Below, one piece after another: positions 2,934 through 39,099 of a stretch of DNA of 59,524 nt (the stretch's first letter is position 1; each line of letters opens with the position of its first letter). The stretch is taken from NCBI GenBank assembly GCA_017993955.1, contig JAGOLR010000006.1:1-59524 (forward strand), read 5' to 3'. The stretch comes from Candidatus Omnitrophota bacterium. Lineage in GTDB: Bacteria > Omnitrophota > Gorgyraeia > 2-01-FULL-45-10. The notes beneath the pieces are model-generated. The model was not told where the DNA came from. It ran no database searches and worked only from the letters and a program-made list of their open reading frames with translations. The position numbers were made by a program, and so were the translations under genes.

Positions 2934-2952
2934 CCTATTACAGGAAACCTCG

Positions 2953-4146: not shown

Positions 4147-4160
4147 ATGGCTTAAATAAC

Positions 4161-16963: not shown

Positions 16964-16986
16964 TTGTGCTATGGGCTATGGGCTAA
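16964..16986. repeat. 7-nt-period array (GTGCTAT GGGCTAT GGGCTAA), single arm
   Basis: Near-identical to the reverse complement of 21394-21420. Confidence 0.55.
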
Positions 16987-17011
16987 AAAAATCAAAAAAA
17001 ATGGGGGCGGT

Positions 17012-19170: not shown

Positions 19171-19860
19171 ATGAAGAATATGATATTAGCATTGGTTATT
19201 ACAATGATGGTTATTGCGGCATGCGCTTCGAATGCCTATGCAATACCCGCATTACAACTCTACATACCCGGATCAGAGTATATAGATGGAGAGGATCCAT
19301 ATACTTGGTCAAGCGAGAACTGGTATACCCCGGATTCCTCATTCAATATTCAAGTGATGGCAGTAGAAAAATTTTCCTCGGTAACATTGGTGGTGGCGGT
19401 TCCGGGTGGTCAAGAGGGGGGCGTTATTATAAATGGCTCTTCATACGCAAGCGGCCAATTTGGTTACGGTACCCCAGTGATGGGTATCGCAAAAAATGGT
19501 AAACCTGACTATATGCCTTCGCATTCTATATACGATACCTCATATCTACTATATAATCTCGGACCGATAACGGTGCTTGATACTCCAGTATACGATGAAG
19601 TTGCGAGGTATTATGGGGAAGAGGGCATTACGCCTAAGCCGGGGGCTGTTATAGAGCTCGATTTTTCCAAAACAAATTTCAGTATGGCCCATTTTGACGT
19701 TTTTGGGACTACTGAAGATGGCCAGATAAAATTTGCTCCTTTCGGCCACGATGCTGAAGACGGGCCTGTGCAGCATTCCCAGACGCCGGAGCCGGTTACG
19801 ATGGCGTTATTTGGTTTAGGCCTGGCGGGAGTGGCAGGGCTTAAAATAAAGAAGAGTTAA
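19171..19860 (+). CDS. PEP-CTERM sorting-domain protein 1
   Basis: Signal peptide MKNMILALVITMMVIAACASNAYA; C-terminus TPEPVTMALFGLGLAGVAGLKIKKS. Confidence 0.85.
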   Translation: MKNMILALVITMMVIAACASNAYAIPALQLYIPGSEYIDGEDPYTWSSENWYTPDSSFNIQVMAVEKFSSVTLVVAVPGGQEGGVIINGSSYASGQFGYGTPVMGIAKNGKPDYMPSHSIYDTSYLLYNLGPITVLDTPVYDEVARYYGEEGITPKPGAVIELDFSKTNFSMAHFDVFGTTEDGQIKFAPFGHDAEDGPVQHSQTPEPVTMALFGLGLAGVAGLKIKKS

Positions 19861-19904
19861 CGAGTTGACGGGTTAGCGGATTTTTATCAATGGAAGGGAT
19901 ATGT

Positions 19905-20645
19905 ATGAAGAAGACTATTGTGGCTGCGGTTATAATCTTAACGGCTGTCGCCTCGCCGGCTTTTGCAAGTTTCATCGGTACCGAGATAAGTTTGAACCAT
20001 CGCTATGGTCGATCAAGCGATATCAAGTCGGGCCAGCCGTATGAACTTTGGCGTGTTCTATCCGATATGGGGTATGCGGCTCTTGCCGATGATGTGAGAA
20101 GGGATGTACTTGGCCAGACCACATCTTCGGCTTATAGCGCTTATAAAAATGCCTTCTGGCAGACATGCAAATATAGCAATTATCTTACTATAGAGGTTTC
20201 GGCTTATTCGTCTGCCAGTAAATTTGGCTGGTACGAAAAAGGTTTTGCCGACGATGTGGGGGACATGTCTAAATCTACTTGGGCTACCGTGTTTACAGGT
20301 GTTGATGGGGCAGGCTCTACCGCGGTGTTTAAAAATAGAAACCAACTCGGGTTCTGGATAAACCCGAATGGCGTTGCGGGCAGGTATTATTTTACTGATG
20401 CCGCTTCGAATGGCGGTAATCTTCAAGCCGTTACATTTGAGCTTGGAGGATATCAGGGGTATGACCAGGATGATTATCTTGTATGCTTTGAGGACCTTAG
20501 ATATTCTTCATGCGATTGCGATAGAGATTTTCAGGATATGATAGTCAGAGTCCATACTTCAAGAGAATGTCCCGAACCTATCACCATGGCCCTATTTGGC
20601 TTGGGGGTGGTTGGCGTTGCTTTAAGTAGATATAGGAAACATTAA
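19905..20645 (+). CDS. PEP-CTERM sorting-domain protein 2 (DUF4114-like segment)
   Basis: Signal peptide MKKTIVAAVIILTAVASPAFA; DYLVCFEDL...DRDFQDMIVRV; C-terminus CPEPITMALFGLGVVGVALSRYRKH; start 19905 has GGAAGGG 6 nt upstream. Confidence 0.85.
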   Translation: MKKTIVAAVIILTAVASPAFASFIGTEISLNHRYGRSSDIKSGQPYELWRVLSDMGYAALADDVRRDVLGQTTSSAYSAYKNAFWQTCKYSNYLTIEVSAYSSASKFGWYEKGFADDVGDMSKSTWATVFTGVDGAGSTAVFKNRNQLGFWINPNGVAGRYYFTDAASNGGNLQAVTFELGGYQGYDQDDYLVCFEDLRYSSCDCDRDFQDMIVRVHTSRECPEPITMALFGLGVVGVALSRYRKH

Positions 20646-20681
20646 TATTAGTCATTATAGATAAAAAATGGAGGTGGATGG

Positions 20682-21356
20682 ATGAAAAAAATAGTTGTTG
20701 TAGCTGTTTTAATATTGATTTTTGGATTTGCCGGTTCAGCGTATGCGACCGTAACGCCAATATCATATCCGACCGGATATAGCGAGAAATGGCTCGATAG
20801 AGACAGGTGGCTTTCTACGTCTATAATAGGGACGCTATTCGGTTTAAATAATGTCACGAGGATAGATGACGATCTGGACCAGATATGGGCGGCCGGCGCT
20901 AACGCAAATGTCAGAGCCGTTGCTAAGTATGCCGGGGACGCTCAGCGTCTATACGCCGGAACTACCCATCTTTTGGATATAACAAGCGGCAATTTCTGTA
21001 GCCTGACAAGCGGCGCTACGGCAGGTTTCACCGCTTCCGGGGCTTTCAAATTTTACGATGACTCGGGTCCGGCTGGCGGGACGATCTGGAGCTCGTTGGT
21101 AAGCGAGAATTCGGACGGTCGTGACCATATGGTTACTTACAGGATAATCAATTCCGGTGGTACAAATTATTCCATTGGTGACTATGTCATAGCCTGGGAA
21201 GACGGGACCGACTGGGATTATAACGATATGGTGTTTGTGCTTCATGATGTGACCAATAATCCCGAGACTAGTCACGCTACTCCTGAGCCGGCCACGATGG
21301 CGCTTATGGGGCTGGGGTTGGCGGGGTTAGTGGCGCGTAAGAAAAAAAGAATTTAG
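20682..21356 (+). CDS. PEP-CTERM sorting-domain protein 3 (DUF4114-like segment)
   Basis: Signal peptide; YVIAWEDGTDWDYNDMVFVL; C-terminus TPEPATMALMGLGLAGLVARKKKRI. Confidence 0.85.
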   Translation: MKKIVVVAVLILIFGFAGSAYATVTPISYPTGYSEKWLDRDRWLSTSIIGTLFGLNNVTRIDDDLDQIWAAGANANVRAVAKYAGDAQRLYAGTTHLLDITSGNFCSLTSGATAGFTASGAFKFYDDSGPAGGTIWSSLVSENSDGRDHMVTYRIINSGGTNYSIGDYVIAWEDGTDWDYNDMVFVLHDVTNNPETSHATPEPATMALMGLGLAGLVARKKKRI

Positions 21357-21428
21357 CTCTGAGCTTTGTGCTATGCGCTGTGTGCTTAATATCTTAGCCC
21401 ATAGCTCATAGCACAAAGCCCCTAGCTC
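21354..21428. repeat. Long imperfect palindrome built of 7-nt units (TAGCTCT GAGCTTT GTGCTAT GCGCTGT GTGCTTA / TTAGCCC ATAGCTC ATAGCAC AAAGCCC CTAGCTC)
   Basis: 13-bp perfect stem GCTTTGTGCTATG/CATAGCACAAAGC plus extensions; lies between PEP-CTERM genes 3 and 4. Confidence 0.6.
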
Positions 21429-21466
21429 TAATATAGTAAAATTCACGAACGGAAGGAGGTGAACAG

Positions 21467-22066
21467 ATGAGAAAAGCTTATTTAGTTCTGTTTGTTTTGC
21501 TGATGGCAGCAGCTATGCCTGTAATTAGCGCTGAGGCAGCAATACTGGCGGATGGGTATACGACTTATGCTGCCACTTCATTTGATGCTGTGGTGTATTG
21601 GAGGGTATATTCACCGTTAGATACTTCGTCACCGTTGGGTTCGATAAATGACTATAGTTATTTTTATCAAGTCCATAATGCTGGTACTGGGACTGATAGA
21701 TCAATAACTCAGCTTGGCGTTGATAATCCATTCCAGCTGACGATCACCACCGCGGGGTATCTGACAACGCTTAATCTGGACGGGTTATCAGGAACCGTGG
21801 CGCCTAACACTACTACATATGGCGGTGAGAATAGTGGTCTATGGACTTTCCAGACACCATCAATTGGTTTAGGGAAGGACAGCTATTTGCTGTATTTTAC
21901 ATCTCCATATGCTCCTAGTAAGGTTAACGGGGGCGTGCAGGCCGGATCTTATAACGCAGAAGGCCCTGTTCCGGGGCCGGTTCCGGAGCCAGCTAGTATG
22001 GCGTTGCTGAGTATTGGCTTAGCAGGATTCGCTGGTAAAGCACTAAGAAGGAAGTTCAGGTCATAG
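21467..22066 (+). CDS. PEP-CTERM sorting-domain protein 4
   Basis: Signal peptide MRKAYLVLFVLLMAAAMPVISAEA; C-terminus VPEPASMALLSIGLAGFAGKALRRKFRS; GGAGGTG SD. Confidence 0.85.
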   Translation: MRKAYLVLFVLLMAAAMPVISAEAAILADGYTTYAATSFDAVVYWRVYSPLDTSSPLGSINDYSYFYQVHNAGTGTDRSITQLGVDNPFQLTITTAGYLTTLNLDGLSGTVAPNTTTYGGENSGLWTFQTPSIGLGKDSYLLYFTSPYAPSKVNGGVQAGSYNAEGPVPGPVPEPASMALLSIGLAGFAGKALRRKFRS

Positions 22067-24476: not shown

Positions 24477-24518
24477 ATCGTGGCCAATGCTAATAGTTTA
24501 CAATTTCGTCAGGGCGAA

Positions 24519-25904
24519 ATGATAAAAAACCGAATATTAGTTGTTGACGACGATCAATTAGTCCAGAAATCGCTTTATGAGATGCTGTGCCGCGCGGGTT
24601 ACGGCGTGGATATAGCGGATTCTATCAACAAAGCCCTGGACCACCTACATGAAAACTCCTACCAGGTAGTGCTCCTAGACTCAAATATCTCCGATACCAA
24701 ACAATTGACCAGGCTTCTCGACATGCCCTCGAGGCAATCGCGGGTGATATTGCTGGCATCCTACGGCGACGTGGATAATATAGTCAAGAATTTTAAGCCA
24801 AAGATATTCGATTATATAACGCGGCCCGTCGAGGATGAGAAGATACTGAAGATGATCGAGCGTTCTTTCGCCAGCAGACCTGTCGCTATATCCATGGACC
24901 TTTTGCGCGAGAAGGTCGATCTCTCGCCCGAAATATCATATAACGGGCTCGTAGGTATCAGTAAGGGGATGAGGGATATATATTCAGTAGTAAGCCGGGT
25001 GGCCCAATCAAAGGCCACCGTTCTTTTGCGCGGAGAGAGCGGCACCGGTAAGCGCATGATAGCCCATGCTATACATAAGGCCGACAAGATCCGGAAAGAC
25101 AGACCTTTTATAGAGATATCGTGCGGGGCTCTGCCGCGGGAGATAATAGAGAGTGAACTATTTGGCCACACCAAAGGATCCTTTACCGGCGCGACCAATG
25201 ATAGGAAAGGTCGCTTTGAGCTTGCTAACGGCGGCACGATACTTCTCGACGATATAGATACGATGCCTCTGGACCTGCAAGTCAAACTCCTCCGAGTGCT
25301 TCAGGAAAAAGAGTTCGAAAGAATAGGCGACCATAAGACGATAAAGGTCGATGTACGTATAATAGTGTCCACCAACCAAGACCTGGAAAAGCTGATAGCC
25401 GAGAAGAAGTTCAGGGAAGACCTGTACTACCGCGTGAATGTCATCTCTATAAATGTCCCGCCTTTGAGAAGTAGAAAAGACGACCTGAGATATCTTGTAG
25501 AGCACTTTGTTAGGATCTACGTAAAGGAGAATCATAAAAATATCCATTCGGTATCTCAGGACGCTTTTGAGGCCTTGGAGCAATACAATTGGCCCGGTAA
25601 TATAAGAGAGCTGGAAAATATCATCGAGCGGGCTGTTATTTTGGATACAGATAACATAATCGACTGCGACGACTTCCCGAGTCTCATAACTACCAGCGTG
25701 CCCTTGGATGAAAAAGCGGCGGCATCCAAAGATCTGTCAAGCGCAATGGCGGATTGCCTTAAAGATGCATTAAAGGAGCCGGAGAAGGTATATATACTGC
25801 GGATAATGGAAGAGACCGGATGGAATAAACGCAAGGCGGCCGAACGTCTTGGCATTAACCGCACGACGCTGTACAATAAATTAAAAAAACTTAACATACT
25901 CTAA
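24519..25904 (+). CDS. Sigma-54-dependent transcriptional activator (NtrC family: receiver + AAA+ + Fis-type HTH)
   Basis: ILVVDDD, VVLLD; Walker A GESGTGK, GAFTGA-type loop GSFTGA, ESELFGH, C-terminal RKAAERLGINRTTLYNKLKK. Confidence 0.9.
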   Translation: MIKNRILVVDDDQLVQKSLYEMLCRAGYGVDIADSINKALDHLHENSYQVVLLDSNISDTKQLTRLLDMPSRQSRVILLASYGDVDNIVKNFKPKIFDYITRPVEDEKILKMIERSFASRPVAISMDLLREKVDLSPEISYNGLVGISKGMRDIYSVVSRVAQSKATVLLRGESGTGKRMIAHAIHKADKIRKDRPFIEISCGALPREIIESELFGHTKGSFTGATNDRKGRFELANGGTILLDDIDTMPLDLQVKLLRVLQEKEFERIGDHKTIKVDVRIIVSTNQDLEKLIAEKKFREDLYYRVNVISINVPPLRSRKDDLRYLVEHFVRIYVKENHKNIHSVSQDAFEALEQYNWPGNIRELENIIERAVILDTDNIIDCDDFPSLITTSVPLDEKAAASKDLSSAMADCLKDALKEPEKVYILRIMEETGWNKRKAAERLGINRTTLYNKLKKLNIL

Positions 25905-25946
25905 TACGGACCACCCATCAATAGTTAAAGGCTTGGCGAATTTTAA

Positions 25947-26990
25947 ATGCTCAATAAACCCGTCGGACTCGGAGACCTGGTCGGTCTGGAGGATTGGCAA
26001 AAGGTACAAAACTATTTTGCCGAAGCTATCGACGTCACCCTCAATACCGTATCTTTAGAAGGAACCCCTTTAACAAAACCCAGCCGCCCAACGCGCCTTT
26101 GCAGCAGCAATTTCCCGAAAGACAGCAAGTGCAAGTCGCTCTGTGACTCCTGCGTAACCAAGAGACTAAATCCTTCGAATATCGCCGATATAAAGAAGAT
26201 GGCAAACTTCAAATGCCATCTAGCGGACCTCGATATGTTCGTCCTTCCGATAGAGGCCGTGGGCAGGCAGATAGTCGCGTATATCGTGCTGGGGCCCATG
26301 ATACTGAAGTCCAGGAAATCGATACCGGAATACATAGAGGAAGCGAAACCCCACGGCATCGGCGCGGACGACATAACCGATGCCCTGATCGAGATAAATG
26401 TATTCTCCTATAGTAAGATATATAATATAACAAATCTTATAACTACCATATTCTCCTATATGGCGCAGACCGGTTACCACAAGAAGCGTCTGGGCGAGAT
26501 AGCGCCCGAGATACTCGGCATGGACCCCGTATTCGCCAGATATCACGAAGAGAGGATATTGAACTCGCTTCTGAAATCCTGTCTCGTGGCGCTAAACGCC
26601 GATTCCGGTTCTGTCATGGTGCGTGACAACAGTACGAATCTACTCCATATCAAGGCCGCATCCAAAATAGACGATGATATCGTCGAGAAGACCGAGATAA
26701 AGGCCGGAGAAGGGATAGCGGGATTTGCCGCCGCCACCGCCCAGCCGATATTACTTCCGAAGGACGGAGAGAAAGGGAATCTGAAAAATAAGATGCGCAG
26801 GGGAGAGATCAAATCTTCTATGATAGTCCCCTTTGCTACGAGCGATGAGACTGACGTATACGGTGTTATAAACCTTAATATATTGCGCACAAATGCGGAT
26901 TTTTCGGAAAAAGACATATCTTTAGTAAAAGAGCTTATCAATCTTACCAAGACCGCATTAGCTTCTGTCCAAGTCTCCACTAAAATCTGA
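25947..26990 (+). CDS. PocR-like sensory domain + GAF domain protein (no output domain)
   Basis: N-terminal LEDWQKVQNYFAEAIDVTLNTVSLEGTPLTKPS...C..C pattern resembles PocR; C-terminal GSVMVRDNSTNLLHIKAA...GEGIAGFAAATAQPILL...VYGVINLN is GAF-like. Confidence 0.65.
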   Translation: MLNKPVGLGDLVGLEDWQKVQNYFAEAIDVTLNTVSLEGTPLTKPSRPTRLCSSNFPKDSKCKSLCDSCVTKRLNPSNIADIKKMANFKCHLADLDMFVLPIEAVGRQIVAYIVLGPMILKSRKSIPEYIEEAKPHGIGADDITDALIEINVFSYSKIYNITNLITTIFSYMAQTGYHKKRLGEIAPEILGMDPVFARYHEERILNSLLKSCLVALNADSGSVMVRDNSTNLLHIKAASKIDDDIVEKTEIKAGEGIAGFAAATAQPILLPKDGEKGNLKNKMRRGEIKSSMIVPFATSDETDVYGVINLNILRTNADFSEKDISLVKELINLTKTALASVQVSTKI

Positions 26991-27039
26991 AAATTTAAGA
27001 AATAATTTTGTTAACGATTAAAAAGTAAGAAAATAATTG

Positions 27040-27067
27040 TTTACATTATTTCACTATTTTGTATAAT
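27040..27067 (+). promoter_or_regulatory. Sigma-70-type promoter TTTACA-N16-TATAAT
   Basis: Read directly in AT-rich intergenic region, ~40 nt before the AGGAGG SD. Confidence 0.5.
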
Positions 27068-27108
27068 AAATACATATTATAATATTTGAAACATAGGAGG
27101 GCGCAAAC

Positions 27109-28623
27109 CTGGAAATCATTAATAAAACTAAATTATTTCCACTCGTACTAATTCTTATATTTTCTTTAATTATACCTGTTTGTGCCGCCGATAAGCCAAG
27201 TCCCACTCTGGAGAAGGGGATAGGCCAATATAAGCACGAAAACTACGACGAATCGATTATTACACTTAAAACAGCGCGTGAGGAGGATCCGAAATCCACA
27301 CTCGCCGCTTTTTATCTAGGCCTTGCTTATAAGCAGACGCAGGATTATAAGGGAGCCGTTTCGCATCTTCGCGACGCTGTAACTTACGAGCCTAAAATAA
27401 AAGGCGCTCTTATAGAGCTTATAGATTGTCTTTATCAGATAAACGAATTGGACGAAGCGAAAAAGTGGATAGTTGAAGCGGAGAGTGAGGCCATAAGGCC
27501 TGCGCAGACCGCCTTTTTAAAAGGGCTTGTCCTGGCCAAGGCGGGCGACGGGGAAGGCGCAATAACGGCATTCGAAAAAGCAAAAGAATTGGATAAATCG
27601 ATGGCCCAGGCCGCCAACTATCAGATCGGCGTGTGCTGTCTTAAAGATAAAAAACTGGATCGGGCTAAACGCGCTTTTGAAGAAGTGGTCCTTATACAGC
27701 CAGGATCCAATATGGCCAACTACGCGAACGAGTATGTAAATTCCATAGAAAAACAGGGGGAGCCAAAGAAACCTTTCAGGATGTCTGTAGCGGAGTATTG
27801 GCAGTATGACGACAATGTAGTCCTTATGCCAAGCGACTCGGAGCTGGTAACCAGCATATCCGATAAAGGCGATTCCCGCGAAGTCACGACCGCGACCGCC
27901 GATTACGATATGAAGCTGAACGACATGGTGACGCTCACCGCGCACTACGGTTTTTATTGGGCAAAGCAGAACGACCTGGGGTTCTACGATACTTTAACGA
28001 ACAACTTCTTGCTTCAGCCGACATTTTATTTTAAGAATAGCGTCCTGACGATACCGTCGGGGTACAACCATACTTTGGTCAACGATAAGGCGTATCTTTC
28101 CAATCCGGTCACCACATCTATCTATAACGTTATGGTGGGTAATTCCAGTATGCTACAGTCGTTTCTGAGATACCAATACCGCGACTATCTTTGGCAGCCC
28201 ATAACTCCGGCGGAGGACAAGGACGGCAGTGACTTTGGCGGAGGCGTGGGTTGGTACACATTCTTCGCTAAAAACAAAGGTTTTATAAATATACGTTATG
28301 CGCTCAATAAAGAGTGGACCGACGGTAATAATTGGGAATATGTAGGGAACCGAGTCGGCGCTACGGTGCTGGTCCCGGTATTGGATAAGCTGAATGTAAG
28401 CGTTACGGGCGATGCCTTTTTCCAGAATTTTGCCAACTCCAACACCATATTCGGGGTAGTACGTAAAGACCAGGTCTATACGGTATCGTCGCTTGTGGCG
28501 TATAAATTCTATAAAGATTCCGAGGTCCAACTGCAATATACTTTCGTAAAAGACAGCTCTAACGTTTCTTTCTATGATTACAACCGCAATATTTATAGCG
28601 CAGGGGTGGAGATAAAATTCTAG
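27109..28623 (+). CDS. Secreted TPR-repeat + C-terminal beta-barrel protein (Slam/DUF560-like or PgaA/BcsC-like architecture); probable CTG start
   Basis: Frame open from stop TAG 27094; AGGAGG 27095-27100 then CTG 8 nt later; signal peptide KTKLFPLVLILIFSLIIPVCAAD lies upstream of the first ATG/GTG/TTG (27448); TPR-like repeats; C-terminal alternating-hydrophobic strands ending YSAGVEIKF (terminal Phe, OMP-like). Confidence 0.7.
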   Translation: MEIINKTKLFPLVLILIFSLIIPVCAADKPSPTLEKGIGQYKHENYDESIITLKTAREEDPKSTLAAFYLGLAYKQTQDYKGAVSHLRDAVTYEPKIKGALIELIDCLYQINELDEAKKWIVEAESEAIRPAQTAFLKGLVLAKAGDGEGAITAFEKAKELDKSMAQAANYQIGVCCLKDKKLDRAKRAFEEVVLIQPGSNMANYANEYVNSIEKQGEPKKPFRMSVAEYWQYDDNVVLMPSDSELVTSISDKGDSREVTTATADYDMKLNDMVTLTAHYGFYWAKQNDLGFYDTLTNNFLLQPTFYFKNSVLTIPSGYNHTLVNDKAYLSNPVTTSIYNVMVGNSSMLQSFLRYQYRDYLWQPITPAEDKDGSDFGGGVGWYTFFAKNKGFINIRYALNKEWTDGNNWEYVGNRVGATVLVPVLDKLNVSVTGDAFFQNFANSNTIFGVVRKDQVYTVSSLVAYKFYKDSEVQLQYTFVKDSSNVSFYDYNRNIYSAGVEIKF

Positions 28624-28654
28624 ACGCTTGGCACTAGCTAAAGGAGCACATGTT

Positions 28655-31600
28655 ATGCGAAACTTACATAGAGCTGTAGGCTTTAATATTTTTACGACGA
28701 TACTTATTGTATACGCCGCGTCTTCGTTTGCATTTGCCGCGGACGTTGGCACCGTGACATACGTCGAAGGCAGGGTCGACACCCTTAGCTCCGGTTCCGA
28801 TATGGGCATGCCGCTAAGACAGGGCGATACCATAGCGGTAGGCGACGCCTTGAGGACGAAATCAAATTCAAAGCTGGAGGTCACATTTAACGATAAATCC
28901 GTCCTCAGAGTGGCTCAAAACTCAAAAGTAGTGGTCAAAGACTATCAGCTCGATGCATCCAACAGAAGGCAGGCCGCCAACATTCTGCTGGAGAGGGGCA
29001 AGGCCAGGACTATCATAGCTAAGATGCCGCGCGCGGCTGACTTCATAATATCTACACCCAATGCATCCGGAAGCGTCAAGGGTTCGGACATATTTACTTC
29101 TTACCAGGCGGGCAACAGCGGAATGCTTGTTGCCGAGGGAAAACTTTCCGTGGTTAATACTTTGAAGCCCGAGCCCGCCGTTATTATACCGGCCGGCAGC
29201 GCAGTAGTCGTATCCCTGGAAGAGACTCCGAAGGGGCCGAGGCAGTATTTCGAAACAGAAAAGAAGATGTATGAACAGGATACGGAGATACCAGCCACCA
29301 TAGCGAGAACTCCCGGCGCGTCCGAGATAAAGGGCGCCATAGCCAAGCTGTCCGGAGACGTCAGGGTGACCTTTAAGAAGACGGGCGAGACGCGCGAGGC
29401 AAGCATCAACGATATCTTGGAGGCCGGAGATACCATCGCGACCGGCGACAACGGTATGGTCGAAATAAAATTCGATAACGGTAACGGCATAAATCTGAAG
29501 CCTAATTCCGACATAAAGATAAACAGCCTTGTTATGGACGCTAAGACCGGTGAATACGAGAACCTTTTTGAGTCTACTAAAGGCAGGATACGTTCACGCA
29601 TAGAAGGTCTTAAGGGTAAGTCCAAATTCGAGATCAAGACGCCCGTTGCCGTGAGTGGAGCCCGAGGCACCATAATGTACCTGGAGATAACGCCTACCAG
29701 AGTGAGGGCGTTTTTCGAAGGCGGTAGAGGAAGCCTTATGAGTTTGATAAGCGGTATCGAGAAGATGGTGGAGGCGGGTGAGAACGCGTGGTCGGATGTC
29801 TCCGGGTTAGTTTCCGAGTCTATGCGCACGCCAGAATCCGAAAGGACATCCTGGGGTGAAGGATGGACTCCCGGGAACGGCACGGAAGGCTACAGCGCTC
29901 CCGACGGTTCTACCGGCGTATATCTTTCGAACGAAGGTGGAAACATAGATATAGTTGAACGTGTATCGACGGAAAACTTTACCGGCCCTGGGAATGACGG
30001 GCCTTTGAACGACCCGCTCCTAAACCCGATCTTCGGTTCCGATGAAGAAGGAAATGGGGAGGGGGAGGAAGAGATCGGCGTTACGGCGGCCGGTTGGATG
30101 GATGGCAGCGTCTACTCTACGGAAACCTCCGGTAGTTTTAATGGGCTTGTCACTATTCTGGGTAATTTCTGGGATGGAAACTCCGCCCAATTTTCATCGG
30201 CAGGAGATTTTTACGGAGGCGCACACGGCCAGTCATTTAGCTGGTCAGGGCCTTTGTATAGTTATTACACTGTATCCGAAGGAGAGCATTCATATACCAC
30301 GTACGACGGAGGCGCTTTTTACGGTATGGCCGTAGGGATAGGCGGGCTTAACGGTTACGAAATAATGGAAGGACTTGCAAAACTTCTGTATATAGATCCA
30401 TCCGGCAATGCCGGTATCGCCGAAGGAGATCTCGCGGGAATATACGACGAGGCGAACTACAAATTTTTATTGCTTAGCGATAATATAACCGGATACCAAA
30501 AGGCGGAAAATATAGGCGTATCTCCCGAGATGCTGTATGATTCCATACATACAACTATGGGAAGCGGATATATGTACGGGGATTCTATCGACGCATATGA
30601 GGAGCTTAGAACTATGTGCATAGCTAATTACGATGAAAGTTATGCGCAGAATTGGGGCATATATGACCAGAGGTTCACTTCGGGCTATATCGGTTCGGAA
30701 GGTGAATGGGCCGCGCATATGGGCGGTAAGGATGCTTTTGGCGCCTACACCTATATAGAACAGAGCCTGACCAATAATCTCGAAGGTACGGGTCCTGGCC
30801 AACTTTTGGACGACTATGGATATTGGGTAGCCGATATTACCGAAGGTACGGCGGAAAACGGCTGGTTATCGGCCAAGCTAAACGGTAAATTTGTCACAAG
30901 ATATAAGATGGGAACTCTGAGCGGTGATATACTCGGTGTATACAACATGGAGGGTGGTTTAGAGACGGCTTATGGTGAGGGCTCGTGGCAAGGGGTCGGC
31001 ATAGGCGTATGGGAAGGGACCCCGCTTACGTTGAGCGGTTACCTGGACCATGGTTACAACGAAGACTCTCCGGGTCTTTACTACAATAACGGCGGGATGA
31101 TGGAATTCGGATCCAATACAGACGGATTGTTGGGAAGCGTAGATTCGCCTCTTTACGGCGTATATGGTTTTAACATGATGGGCGAATACGAGGATTATGG
31201 GTCTCAATCGATCTGGCGAGCCAACATAGCCGGCGACGATGCCGCCGGCGGCAGTTACGCATATTACGGATTTGTTTCAGGATTATGGGATGACGATCTG
31301 GTCGATGCGTATATCACCGCTATCTACATGAACGATCAGGGTGAGGCCGGATATCTTACCGGAGAGGCTAAGGGGCGCGCTTATCCCGGTATTGATATGT
31401 GGATGGTCGAAGGCACCCTTCAATCGGAAATAATGGCATCTGAGATGGAATCTAACGACATATCCGCTTTTTTGGAGTATATATCATACGGCAGTCTGTC
31501 GGGCGAAGTATATGGTTCCGAGTCCGAGTCTTACTATATGAGCGGGTCCTCGTATTCCGGTTCTACTTATTATCTGGCATATGAGGATTGGGGTATATAC

Positions 31601-33298
31601 AACATAGCTTTTGGAAGTGAAAACACTTATGGAAACTATGACGGACGTAAAACCTGGTGGGCCGATATATACGGGGAAGGCATGTTTGGCAACTTCTATG
31701 GATATCAAGGCATAATGAAAGGCAAATTCCATGGTTTGCACGATGGTGAAGGGACATGGATCGGTAACAGTTCAGGTATATGGTACGCAATCGATACGGC
31801 TGAAGAGTACGGCGAGTACGGTGTTTATGCCGGTTTCATGAACGGAGTGTGGGATGAGAACGGGATTATGACAGGTAATATGATAGCCATTTACGACCAA
31901 TCCCCGGGTGCTTGGCTTGAGGAGACCTTTTTATCTATACCATACGAAGGAGGGCTCTTCTATGGCGGTTTCAACGGCGGAAGCGATATGTATTTGTACG
32001 ATCTGAACGGGAAGTTCTACAACTTTTCCGGTAAGGATTGGGGTATATGGAGGGCAAACCTTGCGGGTGAATCGTATAGTCAGGGTGGTATATTAAAGCT
32101 ATTTATGGCAGGCGATATGAATTATGACAACGACGGCTATATGGTTACCGATGGTTACTGGTTCGGCGTAGTGGCGGGAGTCCAGGTGCCCGGATTTCAA
32201 AAGATTACAGGTATATTCAGAGGTCTATCGCTAAGTTTTATCGGCGATGGTATGAGTAACGTCTCTTTGGACTCGGGGGATATGGTCGGGGCCATCTATG
32301 ATATAGACGGGGAATATAATATATGGGAGATGGCCGGTCTCGGTACCTCGCAAAATATCGGTACCATATATACTAGCCCCGAAGGTACCAGCGATTTTAC
32401 GAATAATTTTATAATGGAAGGCGACGTCAACATGTCCGGCGCCGGCCGTTTTATAGACGGAGGCGAGATAAATATCGAACCGTTCGGAGGTAATGTATAT
32501 AACATCCAGGGCGAGAAAGACGGTATATGGATAAACGCCTTTAGCGGCACATGCTCCGATCCGACTGAATCTTTTGACATAGCGCTGTACGGGATAGGTG
32601 GTGAGAATACTTATCGTTATATACTGGCGGAGGCCAAAGGCGAGATGCAGGAGCCTGTGCTGTCAGGCACTTTTGACGGTATATGGATAGGTCTTTCCGA
32701 GGAACAATACGGCGCATTATCCGGCGGCGTAATGACAGGGGAGATGGTAGGTTATATAGATGTTGAAGAGGAGGGGGTCTGCAGTCTTCAAGCGGTGGCG
32801 GCAGGGGAGTGGGTAGAGGCCGAATCGCTTCTTAATACGACCGATATAAACACTCTCAATACATCTATCCAGGAGTTAGCAAGCGCTGTCAATATACCGA
32901 TAACAGAAGTTTATAGTGTGGTCAATATGACCGGTGTCGGAACCGGCGGAATAACATCAGCTGTCATGGATATAAATCTGTACGCACTGCAGCCTAATAT
33001 GCTCCAAGGTATATGGGCATCTATAATAAACGGCGCTTATTCAAACATAGAAAGTCCTGCCGGATGGACAGCCACCGTTGTGAACGGCGGGGATACGGCA
33101 ACTTTGTTGGGAACAAACTGGGGCGATGGCCAGTGGGCAGCCAATGTTTCAGGTACTGTAGGCGGTAATGCCATAACCGGTCAGGCCGGCGGTACATACA
33201 GCGGAGAGGGTTCCGGTACATTCACCGGGGTAGGCGCCGGCACATGGAATGCTCCCGGAGTGGATCCGATACAGCCTCCGCAGCAGGATCCTAGCTAA
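28655..33298 (+). CDS. 1547-aa secreted protein: two FecR-like domains followed by ~1050 aa of degenerate Gly/Tyr/Trp/acidic repeats
   Basis: Signal peptide FNIFTTILIVYAASSFAFA; FecR-like LRQGDTIAVGDALRTKSNSKLEVTFNDKSVLRV and ILEAGDTIATGDNGMVEIKFDNGNGINLKPNS; recurring (D/Q)xGIW/Y motif; AAGGAG SD 8 nt before ATG. Confidence 0.8.
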   Translation: MRNLHRAVGFNIFTTILIVYAASSFAFAADVGTVTYVEGRVDTLSSGSDMGMPLRQGDTIAVGDALRTKSNSKLEVTFNDKSVLRVAQNSKVVVKDYQLDASNRRQAANILLERGKARTIIAKMPRAADFIISTPNASGSVKGSDIFTSYQAGNSGMLVAEGKLSVVNTLKPEPAVIIPAGSAVVVSLEETPKGPRQYFETEKKMYEQDTEIPATIARTPGASEIKGAIAKLSGDVRVTFKKTGETREASINDILEAGDTIATGDNGMVEIKFDNGNGINLKPNSDIKINSLVMDAKTGEYENLFESTKGRIRSRIEGLKGKSKFEIKTPVAVSGARGTIMYLEITPTRVRAFFEGGRGSLMSLISGIEKMVEAGENAWSDVSGLVSESMRTPESERTSWGEGWTPGNGTEGYSAPDGSTGVYLSNEGGNIDIVERVSTENFTGPGNDGPLNDPLLNPIFGSDEEGNGEGEEEIGVTAAGWMDGSVYSTETSGSFNGLVTILGNFWDGNSAQFSSAGDFYGGAHGQSFSWSGPLYSYYTVSEGEHSYTTYDGGAFYGMAVGIGGLNGYEIMEGLAKLLYIDPSGNAGIAEGDLAGIYDEANYKFLLLSDNITGYQKAENIGVSPEMLYDSIHTTMGSGYMYGDSIDAYEELRTMCIANYDESYAQNWGIYDQRFTSGYIGSEGEWAAHMGGKDAFGAYTYIEQSLTNNLEGTGPGQLLDDYGYWVADITEGTAENGWLSAKLNGKFVTRYKMGTLSGDILGVYNMEGGLETAYGEGSWQGVGIGVWEGTPLTLSGYLDHGYNEDSPGLYYNNGGMMEFGSNTDGLLGSVDSPLYGVYGFNMMGEYEDYGSQSIWRANIAGDDAAGGSYAYYGFVSGLWDDDLVDAYITAIYMNDQGEAGYLTGEAKGRAYPGIDMWMVEGTLQSEIMASEMESNDISAFLEYISYGSLSGEVYGSESESYYMSGSSYSGSTYYLAYEDWGIYNIAFGSENTYGNYDGRKTWWADIYGEGMFGNFYGYQGIMKGKFHGLHDGEGTWIGNSSGIWYAIDTAEEYGEYGVYAGFMNGVWDENGIMTGNMIAIYDQSPGAWLEETFLSIPYEGGLFYGGFNGGSDMYLYDLNGKFYNFSGKDWGIWRANLAGESYSQGGILKLFMAGDMNYDNDGYMVTDGYWFGVVAGVQVPGFQKITGIFRGLSLSFIGDGMSNVSLDSGDMVGAIYDIDGEYNIWEMAGLGTSQNIGTIYTSPEGTSDFTNNFIMEGDVNMSGAGRFIDGGEINIEPFGGNVYNIQGEKDGIWINAFSGTCSDPTESFDIALYGIGGENTYRYILAEAKGEMQEPVLSGTFDGIWIGLSEEQYGALSGGVMTGEMVGYIDVEEEGVCSLQAVAAGEWVEAESLLNTTDINTLNTSIQELASAVNIPITEVYSVVNMTGVGTGGITSAVMDINLYALQPNMLQGIWASIINGAYSNIESPAGWTATVVNGGDTATLLGTNWGDGQWAANVSGTVGGNAITGQAGGTYSGEGSGTFTGVGAGTWNAPGVDPIQPPQQDPS

Positions 33299-33327
33299 AA
33301 GAGAAAAGGCTGGATATCCCGTACCAT

Positions 33328-34125
33328 ATGATTAAGCTATATTTTATAATTTCGACCCTTATTCTATGCCTTTCCGGGTGCGGCAAGTCCGAGACCATCG
33401 ATAAAAAGGATATCATAGGATACGTCAACAAAGAGCCGATACTTGCATCCGACCTTGCGCGCGATATAGAGCTAAGAGCAAAACAGGACCCTTCCTTCAG
33501 ATTTACACCTGAAACCCAAGCCGAACAGCTGGATATCCTGATAGACAAAAAAATAATCACCCAGGAAGCCATAAAAGAAGGCCTGGCTCGCAAAGACAGG
33601 TTTGTCAATACCATAAAGGCTTTCTGGGAACAGACTCTTATCAGGGATTTTATAGAGACCAAGAAGGAAGAGTTTGCCGACAGCATTATCATCACAGAGG
33701 ATGATATAGATAAATATTATTCAAAATTGTCGGAGCGCGTCACCTTTAAGGCGATAAAGGCCAAGGACAAGAAGTATCTTCAGACAGCAAAGGCGGAGTT
33801 CGAGAGAAATAAAGATTCGACTCTCATACCATGGCAAGTCATAGGACCTGTGGGTTACGACGACTTAGCGCCCGGGGTATTGATGGATTCTTTTGATATG
33901 CCTGCCGGGGATGTCAAGATAGTCGATATGGATCCGGATTACTACCTTATATACATGTCGGCTCGCGACAAGAGGCTTACCGAACCGCTTGATAATATAC
34001 GTTCCGACATAGAGAAGAGAGTCCGGGAGCTTAAAGACAGGGAGATGTTTGAGGATTGGCTCAAAAAAGAACGGAAAAAAGCCAAAGTGACTATGATAGA
34101 TAATGCGGATGGTAAAAGTAAGTAA
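33328..34125 (+). CDS. Lipoprotein, SurA/PrsA/PpiD-like chaperone with degenerate parvulin domain
   Basis: Lipobox LSGC; GYVNKEPILASDLARDIE (SurA N-terminal-like); later parvulin-like segment. Confidence 0.6.
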   Translation: MIKLYFIISTLILCLSGCGKSETIDKKDIIGYVNKEPILASDLARDIELRAKQDPSFRFTPETQAEQLDILIDKKIITQEAIKEGLARKDRFVNTIKAFWEQTLIRDFIETKKEEFADSIIITEDDIDKYYSKLSERVTFKAIKAKDKKYLQTAKAEFERNKDSTLIPWQVIGPVGYDDLAPGVLMDSFDMPAGDVKIVDMDPDYYLIYMSARDKRLTEPLDNIRSDIEKRVRELKDREMFEDWLKKERKKAKVTMIDNADGKSK

Positions 34126-34144
34126 TACTACCGGGGGTCAGACC

Positions 34145-34714
34145 ATGCAAAGGCGAAGGAATTATTTTATAAAGAAGAGGTTTCAGTTCAGCTTTGCCGC
34201 CGGTTTCGTGGTATTGCTTTTACTGGAATCATTGCTTATCGCCGCATTCCTGGTAAACCTTTCCAATAATACGATAACTACGGGATATTCGGGCTCAGTA
34301 TTAAGGGTCGAAAGGACATCGGATTTCTTTCTCACGTCTTTCATGCTGGGTACATTCATAGTGGCTGGGGCTGTAGCCATAGCCGGCATGCTGATCTTTA
34401 TACTGCTTTCGCACCGGATTGCCGGACCCCTGTACAGATTTGAAAAGACGGTAAAGGATATAGAGGCCGGGGACCTTACGGCAAGGATATCCCTAAGGAA
34501 GAAAGACGAAATAATAGCCTTGAAAGAGGCCCTTAATGTGTTTGTGGATTCCATGGATAAGCGCATAGGCAGGATAAAGAGAAGCCTCCACGAGATAAGG
34601 GTTCTGCATGCCGAAAAGGCCGATCCTGAGGTCGTAGGTCGTAAGATCGCAGCGCTTGAGGATGAGGTAAAGCATTTTAAAGTAACCCAAGACCTTCAAA
34701 AAGAGAGGCGATGA
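34145..34714 (+). CDS. Two-TM protein with cytoplasmic HAMP domain, no output domain
   Basis: Two hydrophobic helices then HRIAGPLYRFEKTVKDIEAGDLTARISLRKKDEIIALKEALNVFVDSM (HAMP signature). Confidence 0.7.
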   Translation: MQRRRNYFIKKRFQFSFAAGFVVLLLLESLLIAAFLVNLSNNTITTGYSGSVLRVERTSDFFLTSFMLGTFIVAGAVAIAGMLIFILLSHRIAGPLYRFEKTVKDIEAGDLTARISLRKKDEIIALKEALNVFVDSMDKRIGRIKRSLHEIRVLHAEKADPEVVGRKIAALEDEVKHFKVTQDLQKERR

Positions 34715-35202
34715 AACGCCTTATCATCTTACCAATAACGATTTTCTCCGCTATAACCATCTTCCAAGAGGCAGTATTTTGCGCATCCGGTAAAGAATTT
34801 ACCACCAGATACACCACCATACATTATAACGAAGACAAGGACATGGACGACTTTATCTGGAGGCTCGGGGGCCAGAAATTGGAGTTCAGCCATGATCGAG
34901 CCCTCGCATCCAGCAGGGTCGACCGGATCATAGACCGAGTGCGGAATGTGCTGGATATACAGCCTGCGAAGTTTACGGTGGATATATATCTATATAGGGG
35001 GCCGCTCGAATCCGGACAACCGGCATTTTTCGAGTATAAAACCCGCTCCATACACATTTCCATCGAAAATGTTACGGACGGCGTATTTGCCCATGAAGTC
35101 GCGCACGCCATTATCAACTTTAATTTCGGTCCGGCGTTACCATCAAAGGTTCAGGAGATACTGACTCAATACGCCGACAAATATCTTTGGAGCGATTACT
35201 AA
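34711..35202 (+). CDS. Secreted protein with HExxH metallopeptidase-type motif
   Basis: Signal peptide MKRLIILPITIFSAITIFQEAVFCA; FAHEVAHAI; ATGA overlap with HAMP gene. Confidence 0.55.
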   Translation: MKRLIILPITIFSAITIFQEAVFCASGKEFTTRYTTIHYNEDKDMDDFIWRLGGQKLEFSHDRALASSRVDRIIDRVRNVLDIQPAKFTVDIYLYRGPLESGQPAFFEYKTRSIHISIENVTDGVFAHEVAHAIINFNFGPALPSKVQEILTQYADKYLWSDY

Positions 35203-35211
35203 AATTTTTTG

Positions 35212-35234
35212 TGATATAATGAGTATATACTCAT
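35212..35234 (+). promoter_or_regulatory. Extended -10 promoter (TGATATAAT) overlapped by perfect 16-nt palindrome ATGAGTATATACTCAT
   Basis: Read directly; upstream of the DUF134 DNA-binding protein gene. Confidence 0.3.
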
Positions 35235-35279: not shown

Positions 35280-35348
35280 GTCATGTGAAGCCGCGATATC
35301 GGCTGAAGCAACCTAAAAGATATATTGCTTCGATTCGCTCGCAATGAC
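35280..35348. repeat. Palindromic element copy a (degenerate left arm GTCATGTGAAG ... CTCGCAATGAC)
   Basis: Shares CGAAGCAA / TTGCTTCG and CTCGCAATGAC blocks with copies b-f. Confidence 0.65.
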
Positions 35349-35366
35349 AGAAAAACCATAAAGTTT

Positions 35367-35666
35367 ATGCCAAGAGGCCGTCCCGTAAAGATTAAAACTA
35401 TAAGAAAGAAGCCGCCTATAAGCCAATTTAGCCCAAGAGGCCGTATAGGAAGGCCTGGCTATGCAGGGCTTAAATTTGAGGAGTTTGAGGCTATAAGACT
35501 GTCAGATCATATAGGCCTTGACCAGAAACAGGCCGCGAAATTTATGGATATAAGCCAGCAGACTTTTTCACGCGTTTTACGTAACGCCAGAAAAAATATC
35601 GCCAAAGCGCTGGTTGACGGAGAAATTATAAAGATAACCGGAGGCCTGTATAAACTTGAAAAGTGA
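35367..35666 (+). CDS. DUF134 (UPF0251) predicted DNA-binding protein
   Basis: MPRGRPVK...FSPRG...FEEFEAIRLSDHIGLDQKQAAKFMDISQQTFSRVLRNARKNIAKALVDG; the ORF-track extension MLRFARNDRK is encoded by repeat copy a. Confidence 0.75.
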   Translation: MPRGRPVKIKTIRKKPPISQFSPRGRIGRPGYAGLKFEEFEAIRLSDHIGLDQKQAAKFMDISQQTFSRVLRNARKNIAKALVDGEIIKITGGLYKLEK

Positions 35667-36992: not shown

Positions 36993-37697
36993 CTATCGTT
37001 TTTTGGCAGGGTATTTATTCAGGATCTTTAGCACGCTGTCTGCGGATGGCGGCATCTTTGCCTTGCCGTCTATCATTATATCGTATGCCGACAAAGACTT
37101 TCCGTATAGCTCCCTGTCTCCATCCCAATGCTGCGTTATTACGGCCCCTTCAAGTTTGACACCGGCGAAAAGGCCGCGGCTTCTTGAGTATGACAAGATT
37201 CCGCCCTTCATCTGGATATCCGTAGAGGCTTCCGCAGCTCGGCCCACAGGGCCTGCGGCGACCGATGCGTCACCGCCAAGTTTGAACTGGCCTTGCAGGA
37301 TCCCGTCAACGCTTCGGCGGTTCATTATTAGAAGCACGAAGTCGGTAGCCTGGCCGCCTATCTGCCACCCGAGGCTTCCGCCCGCTATAGTGAATATGCC
37401 GGGCGGCATCCATTTACCGGTCTTTTCATCCCTGACCATTATGATCCCTTGGCCGTATTTCCCACCTATTATAAAACCAGCGGATACGGTACTGGGGAAT
37501 ATGGCGATCGCGGAGCAGTTTCTCATAAGATCTTCAGGTATGCCTTGGTCTGGCATCTGCTGTATCTCGCCAAGGACCCTCCCGGACTCATCTACAAGTC
37601 GGGTCCATTTATTATCTTCCGCTTTTACATTAACCGGCGCAGTAAAAACGAGCGTCAAGGCGATTGCAAATACCAAGAATATTCTGATATTATTCAT
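36993..37697 (-). CDS. SYLF (Ysc84/DUF500) lipid-binding domain protein, secreted
   Basis: AIAIFPSTVSAGFIIGGKYGQGIIMVRD...GGSLGWQIGGQATDFVLLIMN...FKLGGDASVAAGPVGR. Confidence 0.8.
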   Translation of the reverse strand: MNNIRIFLVFAIALTLVFTAPVNVKAEDNKWTRLVDESGRVLGEIQQMPDQGIPEDLMRNCSAIAIFPSTVSAGFIIGGKYGQGIIMVRDEKTGKWMPPGIFTIAGGSLGWQIGGQATDFVLLIMNRRSVDGILQGQFKLGGDASVAAGPVGRAAEASTDIQMKGGILSYSRSRGLFAGVKLEGAVITQHWDGDRELYGKSLSAYDIMIDGKAKMPPSADSVLKILNKYPAKKR

Positions 37698-37827: not shown

Positions 37828-39099
37828 ATGGAAAGAAGAAACCAAAGAAAGATGGTTGCTTTGATACTGGGCGGCGGCCAGGGTAAGCGGTTATTCCCGC
37901 TTACCATGTACCGCTCCAAACCGGCCGTACCGATAGGCGGTAAATACAGGCTTATAGACATACCGATATCCAATTGTCTCCATTCAAATATTAAAGACAT
38001 ATACGTCCTTACCCAATTTAACTCCGAATCTCTTAATAACCATATAAATAATACATATCGTTTTGATTATTTCTCAAGGGCTTTTGTGCGCATACTCGCG
38101 GCCGAGCAGACTCTGGACAATATAAACTGGTTCCAGGGGACTGCCGATGCAGTACGTAAGAATATAATCCATCTCAACCTCCAGGGTGACGAAGACGTGC
38201 TGATACTCTCCGGCGACCATCTTTACAATATGGATTACAGGGATTTTGCCGCTTTTCATAGAAAGACCGGCGCGGATTTTTCGGTTTCAGTCCTCCCTAT
38301 ACGCGAAAGCGAGGTCAGGGAATTCGGCATACTTGAGTTGGCCGCAAACGGCCGGATATCCCGGTTCAAGGAAAAGCCTAAAACAAAGTCGGATCTTAAA
38401 GGGTTCCATTATGTCGGCGGCAAGGGTTTTCCCGGAGGCCGTTTCTCCAAAGGGTCTTATTTTCTGGCATCTATGGGTGTGTACATATTCAATGCGAAGG
38501 CCCTTAAAAAAGCGCTGGATAATACGGATGCCGATTTCGGTAAAGAGGTTATACCGCATTCCATAAAGAACCTTAAAGGCTACGGATATGTGTTTGACGG
38601 TTACTGGAAAGATGTCGGGACGATAAAATCTTTTTACGATGTGAATATGGAGATGGCCGCTTCTAAACCGCATTTCGATTTTTTCTACGAAGGTGACGTA
38701 TTTACCAGGCCTCGGTTCCTTCCGGCTGCCAGAGTATTAAATTCCAGGCTCCAGCATTGCATAGTTTCCGAAGGTTGCGTTATAAGCGACGCGGAGGTTA
38801 AAAACTCTATCGTTGGCTTGCGCACTATAATAGAAAAACGCTGCCGCATAACCAGGACGGTGCTTATGGGCGCGGATTATTTTGAGCGCGATAAGGCTAG
38901 CGGGTCCGTAAAGCTGGGTATCGGTGATGGCACCACTATAGATAAGGCTATAGTCGATAAGAACGCCAGAATAGGCAAGAACTGCGTTATAAGGAACCTC
39001 AAAGGACTGAAGAATTTTGACGGGCCGAATTATTATATCCGCGACGGAGTCGTGATAATACCGAAGAATGCGGTCATTAAGGATAACACCAAGATATAA
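37828..39099 (+). CDS. glgC: Glucose-1-phosphate adenylyltransferase
   Basis: LILGGGQGKRLFPLTMYRSKPAVPIGGKYRLIDIPISNC, C-terminal hexapeptide domain; start could also be ATG 37852. Confidence 0.9.
   Translation: MERRNQRKMVALILGGGQGKRLFPLTMYRSKPAVPIGGKYRLIDIPISNCLHSNIKDIYVLTQFNSESLNNHINNTYRFDYFSRAFVRILAAEQTLDNINWFQGTADAVRKNIIHLNLQGDEDVLILSGDHLYNMDYRDFAAFHRKTGADFSVSVLPIRESEVREFGILELAANGRISRFKEKPKTKSDLKGFHYVGGKGFPGGRFSKGSYFLASMGVYIFNAKALKKALDNTDADFGKEVIPHSIKNLKGYGYVFDGYWKDVGTIKSFYDVNMEMAASKPHFDFFYEGDVFTRPRFLPAARVLNSRLQHCIVSEGCVISDAEVKNSIVGLRTIIEKRCRITRTVLMGADYFERDKASGSVKLGIGDGTTIDKAIVDKNARIGKNCVIRNLKGLKNFDGPNYYIRDGVVIIPKNAVIKDNTKI

Follow-up and report, generated by a model that had tools for sequence, protein, structure and literature searches.

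A 59,524-nucleotide (nt) stretch of contig JAGOLR010000006.1 from a Candidatus Omnitrophota bacterium (assembly GCA_017993955.1), hereafter the window, in whose positions all coordinates are given, harbors at 27040-35202 a tightly packed operon of five plus-strand open reading frames (ORFs), designated here G1 to G5. G1 (27109-28623) encodes a protein of 504 amino acids (aa) with a signal peptide, a periplasmic tetratricopeptide repeat (TPR) domain and a modelled outer-membrane barrel; G2 (28655-33298) encodes a giant protein of 1547 aa with predicted Sec-dependent export; G3 (33328-34125) a SurA/PrsA-like lipoprotein of 265 aa; G4 (34145-34714) an inner-membrane HAMP protein of 189 aa; and G5 (34711-35202) a secreted, minimal gluzincin-like protein of 163 aa. 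The genes are separated by 31 nt (G1-G2), 29 nt (G2-G3) and 19 nt (G3-G4), and G4 and G5 share an ATGA overlap, confirming the closely spaced, same-strand layout and the gene boundaries proposed in a first-pass annotation made from the DNA sequence.

The start of G1 is a non-canonical CTG at 27109, preceded by an AGGAGG Shine-Dalgarno sequence with an 8-nt spacer (27095-27111 including the start codon, plus strand). An in-frame TAG lies at 27094-27096, 15 nt upstream of the CTG, and the first ATG, GTG or TTG is found only at 27448, 339 nt further on, where the ORF lister places the start; we assign the start to the CTG because alignments with homologues extend back to residue 1 and this is also where the public record P0001 begins. 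The starts of G2 and G4 are set as given because homologues begin at those positions. The best promoter-like site of the region, TTTACA-N16-TATAAT (27040-27067, plus strand), which the first-pass annotation had noted, matches the sigma-70-like consensus at 11 of 12 positions; that it acts as the operon promoter is plausible only, since consensus-like sites are not enriched over shuffled sequence (21 found, 19.1 expected) and neither of the two relatives checked (loci L005 and L001) has an equivalent sigma-70-like site before G1. No GG-N10-GC sigma-54 promoter is visible in the 26991-27108 interval upstream of G1, and an Rfam search of the whole window returned zero matches.

The TPR repeats of G1 (∼aa 30-217; best Pfam match TPR_2, E 8e-17) are resolved as 11 helices in residues 32-217 of an AlphaFold2 model computed with 33 homologues (predicted local distance difference test score, pLDDT, 88.8). 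The same confident model contains 14 DSSP strands over residues 223-503, in agreement with the earlier proposal that the C-terminal domain (aa 218-504, 27760-28623, plus strand) is a beta-barrel, here a predicted 14-stranded one; the protein ends in IKF, with phenylalanine as its final residue. Foldseek searches with the whole chain place the TPR and barrel proteins BcsC and PelBC on top, at template modelling (TM) scores of 0.3-0.44, and the barrel alone is best fitted by the 14-strand proteins OmpG and CymA (TM 0.54-0.73). G1 has over 415 full-length homologues (53-79% identity), which bear only the name 'tetratricopeptide repeat protein', and all those with an organism given come from Candidatus Omnitrophota. 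A barrel-only profile of G1 retrieves 1492 representative clusters, nearly all of which are ∼500 aa long and carry the barrel C-terminally.

Comparison with the Slam/DUF560 translocators, suggested by the first-pass annotation, proved the best lead to the family of G1. The G1 relative P0196 matches the G1 barrel profile (E 1.7e-87) and aligns with G1 over 476 residues without gaps, at 38% identity. It scores above the threshold of the Pfam SlipAM model (PF04575, the Slam/DUF560 barrel; 34.8 bits, cut-off 22), and the match extends from position 5 to position 278 of the 288 in the profile, thus across the whole barrel; a second relative, P0339, scores 17.5 bits against the same cut-off. TPR_Slam matches are sub-threshold in 30 of 33 G1 family members, and G1 and its close relatives match just the last ∼70 residues of Pfam BBP2_2, with DUF2860 also matched in 7 of 19. 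P0196 (667 aa) carries an extra N-terminal OmpA-like peptidoglycan-binding domain before its TPR and barrel.

Published type 11 secretion system (T11SS) outer-membrane proteins are proteobacterial, 14-stranded and TPR-bearing, with an adjacently encoded cargo whose C-terminus directs secretion (10.1101/2020.01.20.912956; 10.1101/2024.09.26.615229). Like Slam1 of Neisseria, NilB of Xenorhabdus and HrpB, G1 measures ∼500 aa and combines a signal peptide with a periplasmic TPR domain at the N-terminus and a barrel, modelled with 14 strands, at the C-terminus, and its partner is encoded immediately adjacent, as the T11SS cargo rule has it (10.1101/2020.01.20.912956). A periplasmic holdase is a further common element: Skp is needed by Slam cargo (PMC9090332), and SurA-like or Skp-like genes accompany the operons described here. 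A SlipAM match alone is insufficient to prove Slam-type function, because the PF04575 data set also takes in 16-strand PgaA proteins (10.1101/2020.01.20.912956; 10.1101/2024.09.26.615229). The match of P0196, together with the TPR domain, the 14 modelled strands and the adjoining partner gene, nevertheless suggests that G1 is a distant relative of the Slam/T11SS outer-membrane proteins.

That partner, G2, begins with a predicted cleavable signal peptide of the Sec type (cleavage between AFA and AD), followed by a pair of basic domains (aa 31-190 and 226-389; 28745-29821, plus strand; isoelectric point, pI, 8.8) that match Pfam FecR at 84.9 bits. The FecR character had been recognized in the first-pass annotation, which omitted the resemblance of this region to the retention module of LapA: the N-terminal 460 aa score 56.1 bits against the NCBIfam profile retention_LapA (NF033682; cut-off 50), and the profile is matched in all 13 of the G2 homologues searched (E<=0.001). 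Resemblances to Lsa33 and LipL45 of Leptospira fall below the cut-offs, the FecR profile PRK09774 gives a weak match in 2 of 13 homologues, and the sole match in the PDB is 5ix9, the N-terminal region of the Marinomonas ice-binding adhesin MpIBP (E 0.012). After a conserved EGW..G.EGYS motif comes a linker rich in Gly, Asp, Asn and Glu (∼aa 400-480; 29852-30094, plus strand), with a pI of 4.05, 22% Gly and a single Lys or Arg in 80 aa, which is a candidate for the barrel-spanning segment.

The ∼1070 residues that follow the linker contain no known domain and differ sharply in charge from the N-terminus, with residues 1-400 having a pI of 8.8 and 51 Lys plus Arg, and residues 400-1547 a pI of ∼4 and 28 Lys plus Arg in 1147 aa. 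Conservation is split in a similar manner: between loci, identity is 37-59% in the N-terminal part of G2 and 22-41% in its C-terminal part. Homologues range in length from 870 to 2366 aa and, in a tblastn coverage profile, share residues 1-790 and 1336-1535; the intervening variable region (∼aa 790-1335; 31022-32659, plus strand) is missing in homologues of ∼900 aa and expanded in those of 1500-2366 aa. This region appears to consist of degenerate modules of ∼150 aa, as judged from the coverage profile, motif enrichment and marginal internal similarity. Hence the earlier description of G2 as a giant, secreted repeat protein holds for its size and predicted export, and for its repeats only loosely: BLASTP self-comparison detects no internal repeats even at E 50, Smith-Waterman windows score marginally higher than shuffles (71 vs. 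58.6 ± 5.4), and G2 contains 7 copies of the degenerate motif W-x-[AGSTV]-x-h-x-G, where 0.7 would be expected. The conserved C-terminal domain (aa 1336-1547; 32660-33298, plus strand), recognized from an alignment that includes deltaproteobacterial homologues, contains no Lys or Arg in its 212 residues and ends in the motif G-T-F-x-G-x-G-x-G-T-W, a signature of the family. It has no match in Pfam (TbpB_B_D included) or the PDB, and a word-indexed homologue search with its profile returned just seven fragments.

A scan of one genome per species yielded 37 true G1 loci, 34 of them with room for G2, and neighboring ORFs were clustered over 40 loci (loci are cited by L numbers). The 37 loci belong to Omnitrophota (some labelled Planctomycetia) and, at 30-33% identity, to Syntrophorhabdaceae and 'Deltaproteobacteria'. 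G2 directly follows G1 in 33 of the 34 loci with room for it, including those of Syntrophorhabdaceae, in line with the earlier expectation that the putative substrate would be encoded next to the barrel; the one exception (L038, a single-cell assembly) has FeoB after G1. At least 17 loci have G3, G4 and G5 after G1 and G2 (inverted in one of them), so that the five-gene order recurs outside this genome. Identity between loci for G1, the N-terminal part of G2, G3, G4 and G5 is about 30% to 65%.

The earlier view of a single, self-contained five-gene module did not hold. G3-G4-G5 are missing after G1-G2 in ∼9 loci, which carry a short G2, and in two of four long contigs located by a G5-seeded search (L045, from Thermodesulfobacteriota, and L047) they stand without an adjacent G1 or G2. 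The operon is thus a frequent joining of two modules, module A (G1 and G2) and module B (G3, G4 and G5). In three loci (L011 and the deltaproteobacterial L035 and L041), sequence inspection, with no profile search run, points to an OmpH/Skp-like gene of 171-179 aa after G2. One metagenome-assembled genome carries two copies of module A (L006 and L030).

The three proteins of module B, all on the plus strand, retain the main characters assigned to them in the first-pass annotation. G3 has a lipobox (LSGC) that is kept in all 17 homologues aligned, and a degenerate parvulin-like middle; its matches to SurA_N_3, Rotamase_2 and EpsD are all below threshold, so that the SurA-like and parvulin features proposed earlier are present at sub-threshold scores. 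A PDB profile search with G3 finds a weak match to Leptospira LIC12922 (3nrk) and nothing else, and short forms of the homologues lack the parvulin-like part. G4 is confirmed as a protein with two transmembrane helices and a HAMP domain (31.5 bits against a cut-off of 25), followed by a C-terminal helix of ∼50 aa and no output domain; its homologues begin M-x-RRKNYFIKK, and its periplasmic loop of ∼24 aa contains the conserved motif TTGY..S.LR.E.T..FF.

G5 has a predicted signal peptide and, as the first reading of the sequence had indicated, an HExxH motif (H128-E129-x-x-H132; 35092-35106), which, like the downstream E149 (35155-35157), is invariant in 33 sequences. Across 71 homologue clusters the invariant residues are H128, E129, H132, Q148, E149, Y154 and D156. 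G5 belongs to no Pfam or NCBIfam family, and a PDB profile search gave no significant match. Foldseek searches with the AlphaFold2 model (pLDDT 90) rank zinc metallopeptidases almost exclusively at the top; most of these are gluzincins, and the minigluzincins selecase and abylysin head the list, so that G5 looks like a minimal gluzincin, although the structural matches are weak. It shares with the minigluzincins (selecase, projannalysin, proabylysin) a catalytic unit of ∼110-160 aa, the HExxH motif and a downstream glutamate on the next helix; unlike them it is a secreted bacterial protein with an extra N-terminal beta/alpha part and no assigned sequence family.

From the domain identities, the modelled strand count of the barrel, the synteny and the split of charge and conservation within G2, we infer a route of translocation, a topology and roles for G3, G4 and G5. 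The reading that we favor, tentatively and at somewhat short of an even chance, is that G1 is a Slam-like translocon which threads G2 to the cell surface, where G2 remains tethered by its periplasmic N-terminus. G2 would reach the periplasm via Sec and be kept unfolded by the SurA-like lipoprotein G3, a role that Skp/OmpH may take over in the deltaproteobacterial loci. The acidic, fast-evolving C-terminal part of ∼1100 residues would then cross to the surface within or beside the G1 barrel, while the two basic FecR/retention domains would fold in the periplasm and halt translocation; because these folded domains could not follow, G2 would stay tethered, with its Gly/Asp-rich linker in the pore. 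In effect, the retention logic of LapA would be rebuilt on a Slam-like barrel and Sec export. G5, as a small periplasmic zinc protease, may trim or release a client, most plausibly G2, and G4 may link these steps to a signal from the cytoplasm or the membrane.

Several observations weigh against tethered export through G1. G1 itself lies below SlipAM detection, neither it nor any of its 19 closest relatives giving a match to PF04575 even at E 10, which makes the Slam link a transitive one, and the top 50 Foldseek matches of G1 contain no solved Slam structure. The range of the family differs as well, T11SS having been described in Proteobacteria only and G1 occurring in Omnitrophota and Desulfobacterota-type lineages. 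G2 departs from known T11SS cargo in that no TbpBBD-type C-terminal barrel, the mark of cluster-1 cargo, was detected in it, in that it is 5-10 times larger, and in that its N-terminus is conserved whereas that of T11SS cargo is variable; unlike in T11SS, no TonB or TonB-dependent receptor is found near G1-G2. The surface location of G2 is itself something that we infer. As for module B, the Foldseek matches of G5 are weak (best E 3e-3, TM 0.35-0.5), the periplasmic loop of G4 is too small for a LapD-like mode of working, and the module is separable from module A, so that it may serve other clients, given its absence after module A in some loci and its independent occurrence in others.

The alternative that survives best, although we consider it unlikely, is trans-envelope signalling without export, in which G2 would stay in the periplasm with its FecR domains docked to the TPR domain or the periplasmic face of the G1 barrel, as FecR docks to FecA, and an envelope signal would be passed to a CHASE2-domain PP2C phosphatase and on to a partner switch (STAS protein and anti-sigma kinase), with G4 and G5 providing HAMP signalling and regulated proteolysis. 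Beyond the FecR match of G2, this explanation draws on a linkage that the first-pass annotation omitted: the commonest further neighbor of the operon in relatives, found in 19 of the 40 loci directly before G1 or after G5, is a gene for a CHASE2-SpoIIE (PP2C) protein, often preceded by genes for an RsbW-like kinase, a STAS protein and MlaE/F/D. As in FecR/FecA signalling, a FecR-domain protein is paired here with an outer-membrane protein, and clusters of CHASE2, FecR-protein and TPR-protein genes reported in Campylobacterota (the cAMP cluster; PMC9239204) and operons of LysM-FecR and CHASE2 kinase genes reported in Burkholderia (PMC5192318) provide parallels, with the difference that the CHASE2 output in relatives of the present operon is a PP2C phosphatase. 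In the window, however, the 27 kb upstream and the 24 kb downstream of the operon are devoid of CHASE2 genes, and the RsbW, STAS and Mla neighbors are likewise absent. Moreover, G2 has no transmembrane or anti-sigma part, its acidic, hypervariable extension of 1100-2000 aa, nearly free of Lys and Arg, is hard to reconcile with a periplasmic adaptor, and the dedicated SurA/Skp-type chaperones suggest an unfolded client in transit.

Export and periplasmic signalling are not mutually exclusive. The conserved CHASE2-PP2C neighbor in relatives, taken with the Campylobacterota and Burkholderia reports, suggests a second, signalling role for the FecR domains: in most relatives they probably also contact the adjacent phosphatase in the periplasm, and the export device may double as a surface sensor. 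In its fullest form, which we regard as speculative and rather improbable as a whole, this would be a relative of type 11 secretion that depends on Sec, retains its cargo and also acts as a cell-surface sensor, with a tether that G5 can cut. The giant G2 would be threaded through the Slam-like barrel with its FecR/retention domains touching the CHASE2-PP2C phosphatase, and partner-switch signalling would start when its variable surface part meets a target such as a host cell of these ultra-small bacteria. In several relatives the block adjoining G1 comprises genes for an RsbW-like kinase, STAS, MlaE, MlaF, MlaD and CHASE2-SpoIIE (L001, 4792-9873; also L007, L010, L020 and L038), and so links the partner-switch pathway with an Mla-type lipid transporter.

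A strict Lap-like switch, in which G5 would cleave the retention module of G2 and shed it, and G4 would sequester or control G5 as LapD does LapG, is improbable, for all that G2 and its neighbors resemble the LapA and MpIBP adhesins in outline. Like those adhesins, G2 is a giant acidic protein with an N-terminal retention-module-like domain (it passes the corresponding profile), a flexible linker and a long variable extension, and, as in LapA-type loci, a periplasmic protease and a HAMP protein of the inner membrane are encoded next to it, here in at least 17 loci. The components themselves are different, however. G2 has a Sec signal peptide and no RTX or C-terminal signal of the type 1 secretion system (T1SS), and its outer-membrane partner is a monomeric TPR-barrel rather than a TolC-like LapE; G5 is gluzincin-like, of the HExxH type, and not a C93 cysteine protease such as LapG; and G4, unlike LapD, has neither GGDEF/EAL domains nor a periplasmic domain beyond its short loop. 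No T1SS, LapG or LapD genes were found in the window, and module B also occurs without an adjacent module A.

The operon lies directly after a complete PEP-CTERM/exosortase polysaccharide locus (385-24050), a position that the first-pass annotation left out. This locus encodes an epimerase, a Wzx flippase, a pyruvyl transferase, several family 4 glycosyltransferases (GT4), a deacetylase, a family 2 glycosyltransferase (GT2), EpsI/DUF3485, a priming sugar transferase, a 992-aa fusion of Wzy_C and a beta-helix, the exosortase EpsH (15311-16144) and four PEP-CTERM proteins (19171-22066). We saw neither a Wza-like exporter nor a chain-length regulator in it. G+C content falls to 35-36% at 2000-6000 of the window, and an ORF6N-domain gene (a DNA-binding domain associated with phages and antirepressors) at 16964-17575, between the genes for EpsI and the priming sugar transferase, may be an insertion. 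Between this locus and the operon, genes for a sigma-54 response regulator (PrsR-like, below cut-off) and a PocR-GAF protein (24480-26990, plus strand) are lineage-specific neighbors, possibly regulators of the operon and outside its conserved unit. Only one of the ∼37 related loci (L005) shares this arrangement of regulator and exosortase genes.

Given this setting, the operon genes might be accessories of the PEP-CTERM/exosortase system, with G1 as an EpsL- or PrsT-like outer-membrane component and G3 as an EpsD-type isomerase, an explanation that we consider very improbable and reject as a general one. In addition to the adjacency of the locus and its PrsR-like regulator, and the BcsC and PelBC matches of G1, it could call on weak NCBIfam matches to PrsT (71.7 bits), EpsL (20.8), TIGR03016 (16.9) and EpsD (26.1), but the cut-offs are far higher (312 for PrsT TIGR02917, 275 for EpsL TIGR03014, 90.9 for TIGR03016 and 108.9 for EpsD TIGR02925), the exosortase context is confined to the one relative, the modelled barrel has 14 strands and not 16-18, and the invariant partner of G1 is a giant FecR protein without a PEP-CTERM tail. 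An exopolysaccharide (EPS) porin of the BcsC, PgaA or PelB/PelC type, with which G1 shares TPR and barrel in one polypeptide and which the first-pass annotation had weighed, is rejected on strand number (those barrels have 16 strands, with far longer TPR arrays and the low whole-chain TM scores given above) and on synteny, for such porins adjoin GT2 synthases, whereas the conserved neighbors of G1 are the FecR protein and CHASE2-PP2C, and the EPS locus beside G1 in the window and L005, the only two such cases, is of the Wzx/Wzy/exosortase type. A classical FecR anti-sigma role for G2 is rejected too, no anti-sigma or transmembrane part, extracytoplasmic function (ECF) sigma factor or TonB-dependent transducer being present.

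Downstream of the operon lie housekeeping genes. A DUF134 (putative DNA-binding) gene at 35325-35666, on the same strand and 120 nt after G5, follows G5 in none of the relatives, and a perfect AT-rich palindrome of 16 nt (ATGAGTATATACTCAT, ∼35219-35234) lies between the two genes. A gene for a Ysc84/SYLF-domain protein is found within a few kb of the cluster in three loci (36993-37697 in the window, minus strand; 4090-4791 in L001; and just after G5 in L005). Further downstream, a ParA/MinD-type ATPase fused to a C-terminal glycogen-binding module (AMPK1_CBM/CBM48; 43887-45182, minus strand) is encoded near glgC (37828-39099) and could be a positioning ATPase for glycogen granules.

We found no paper describing this gene cluster in the literature on Omnitrophota, FecR, retention modules, CHASE2 or partner-switching. 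The new elements are a Slam/T11SS-like barrel found outside Proteobacteria, its partner from a new class that bears a retention module, a recurrent module of chaperone, HAMP protein and gluzincin, and a linkage to CHASE2. To our knowledge, Slam/T11SS proteins have been described only in Proteobacteria, with small cargo bearing a TbpBBD barrel; if Omnitrophota and Desulfobacterota-type bacteria carry a related barrel tied to a giant FecR/retention-module protein, both the phylogenetic range and the cargo rules of T11SS would become wider. Such a pairing would also bring together two ideas that have so far been separate, namely translocation of the Slam type and the retention of giant T1SS adhesins by an N-terminal 'plug'.

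Clusters of FecR-protein, TPR-protein and CHASE2 genes recur in several phyla, and we know of no explanation for them; the TPR protein of such clusters being here an outer-membrane barrel, by its model, offers a testable architecture upstream of CHASE2. Should the combined exporter and sensor prove correct, T11SS would extend beyond Proteobacteria with a new class of cargo and a first retention mechanism, and CHASE2, whose ligands are unknown, would gain a protein partner. Omnitrophota are uncultured, very small bacteria with a suspected dependence on other cells, and G2, as a conserved, fast-evolving and putatively surface-exposed giant protein, is a candidate attachment factor of this phylum.

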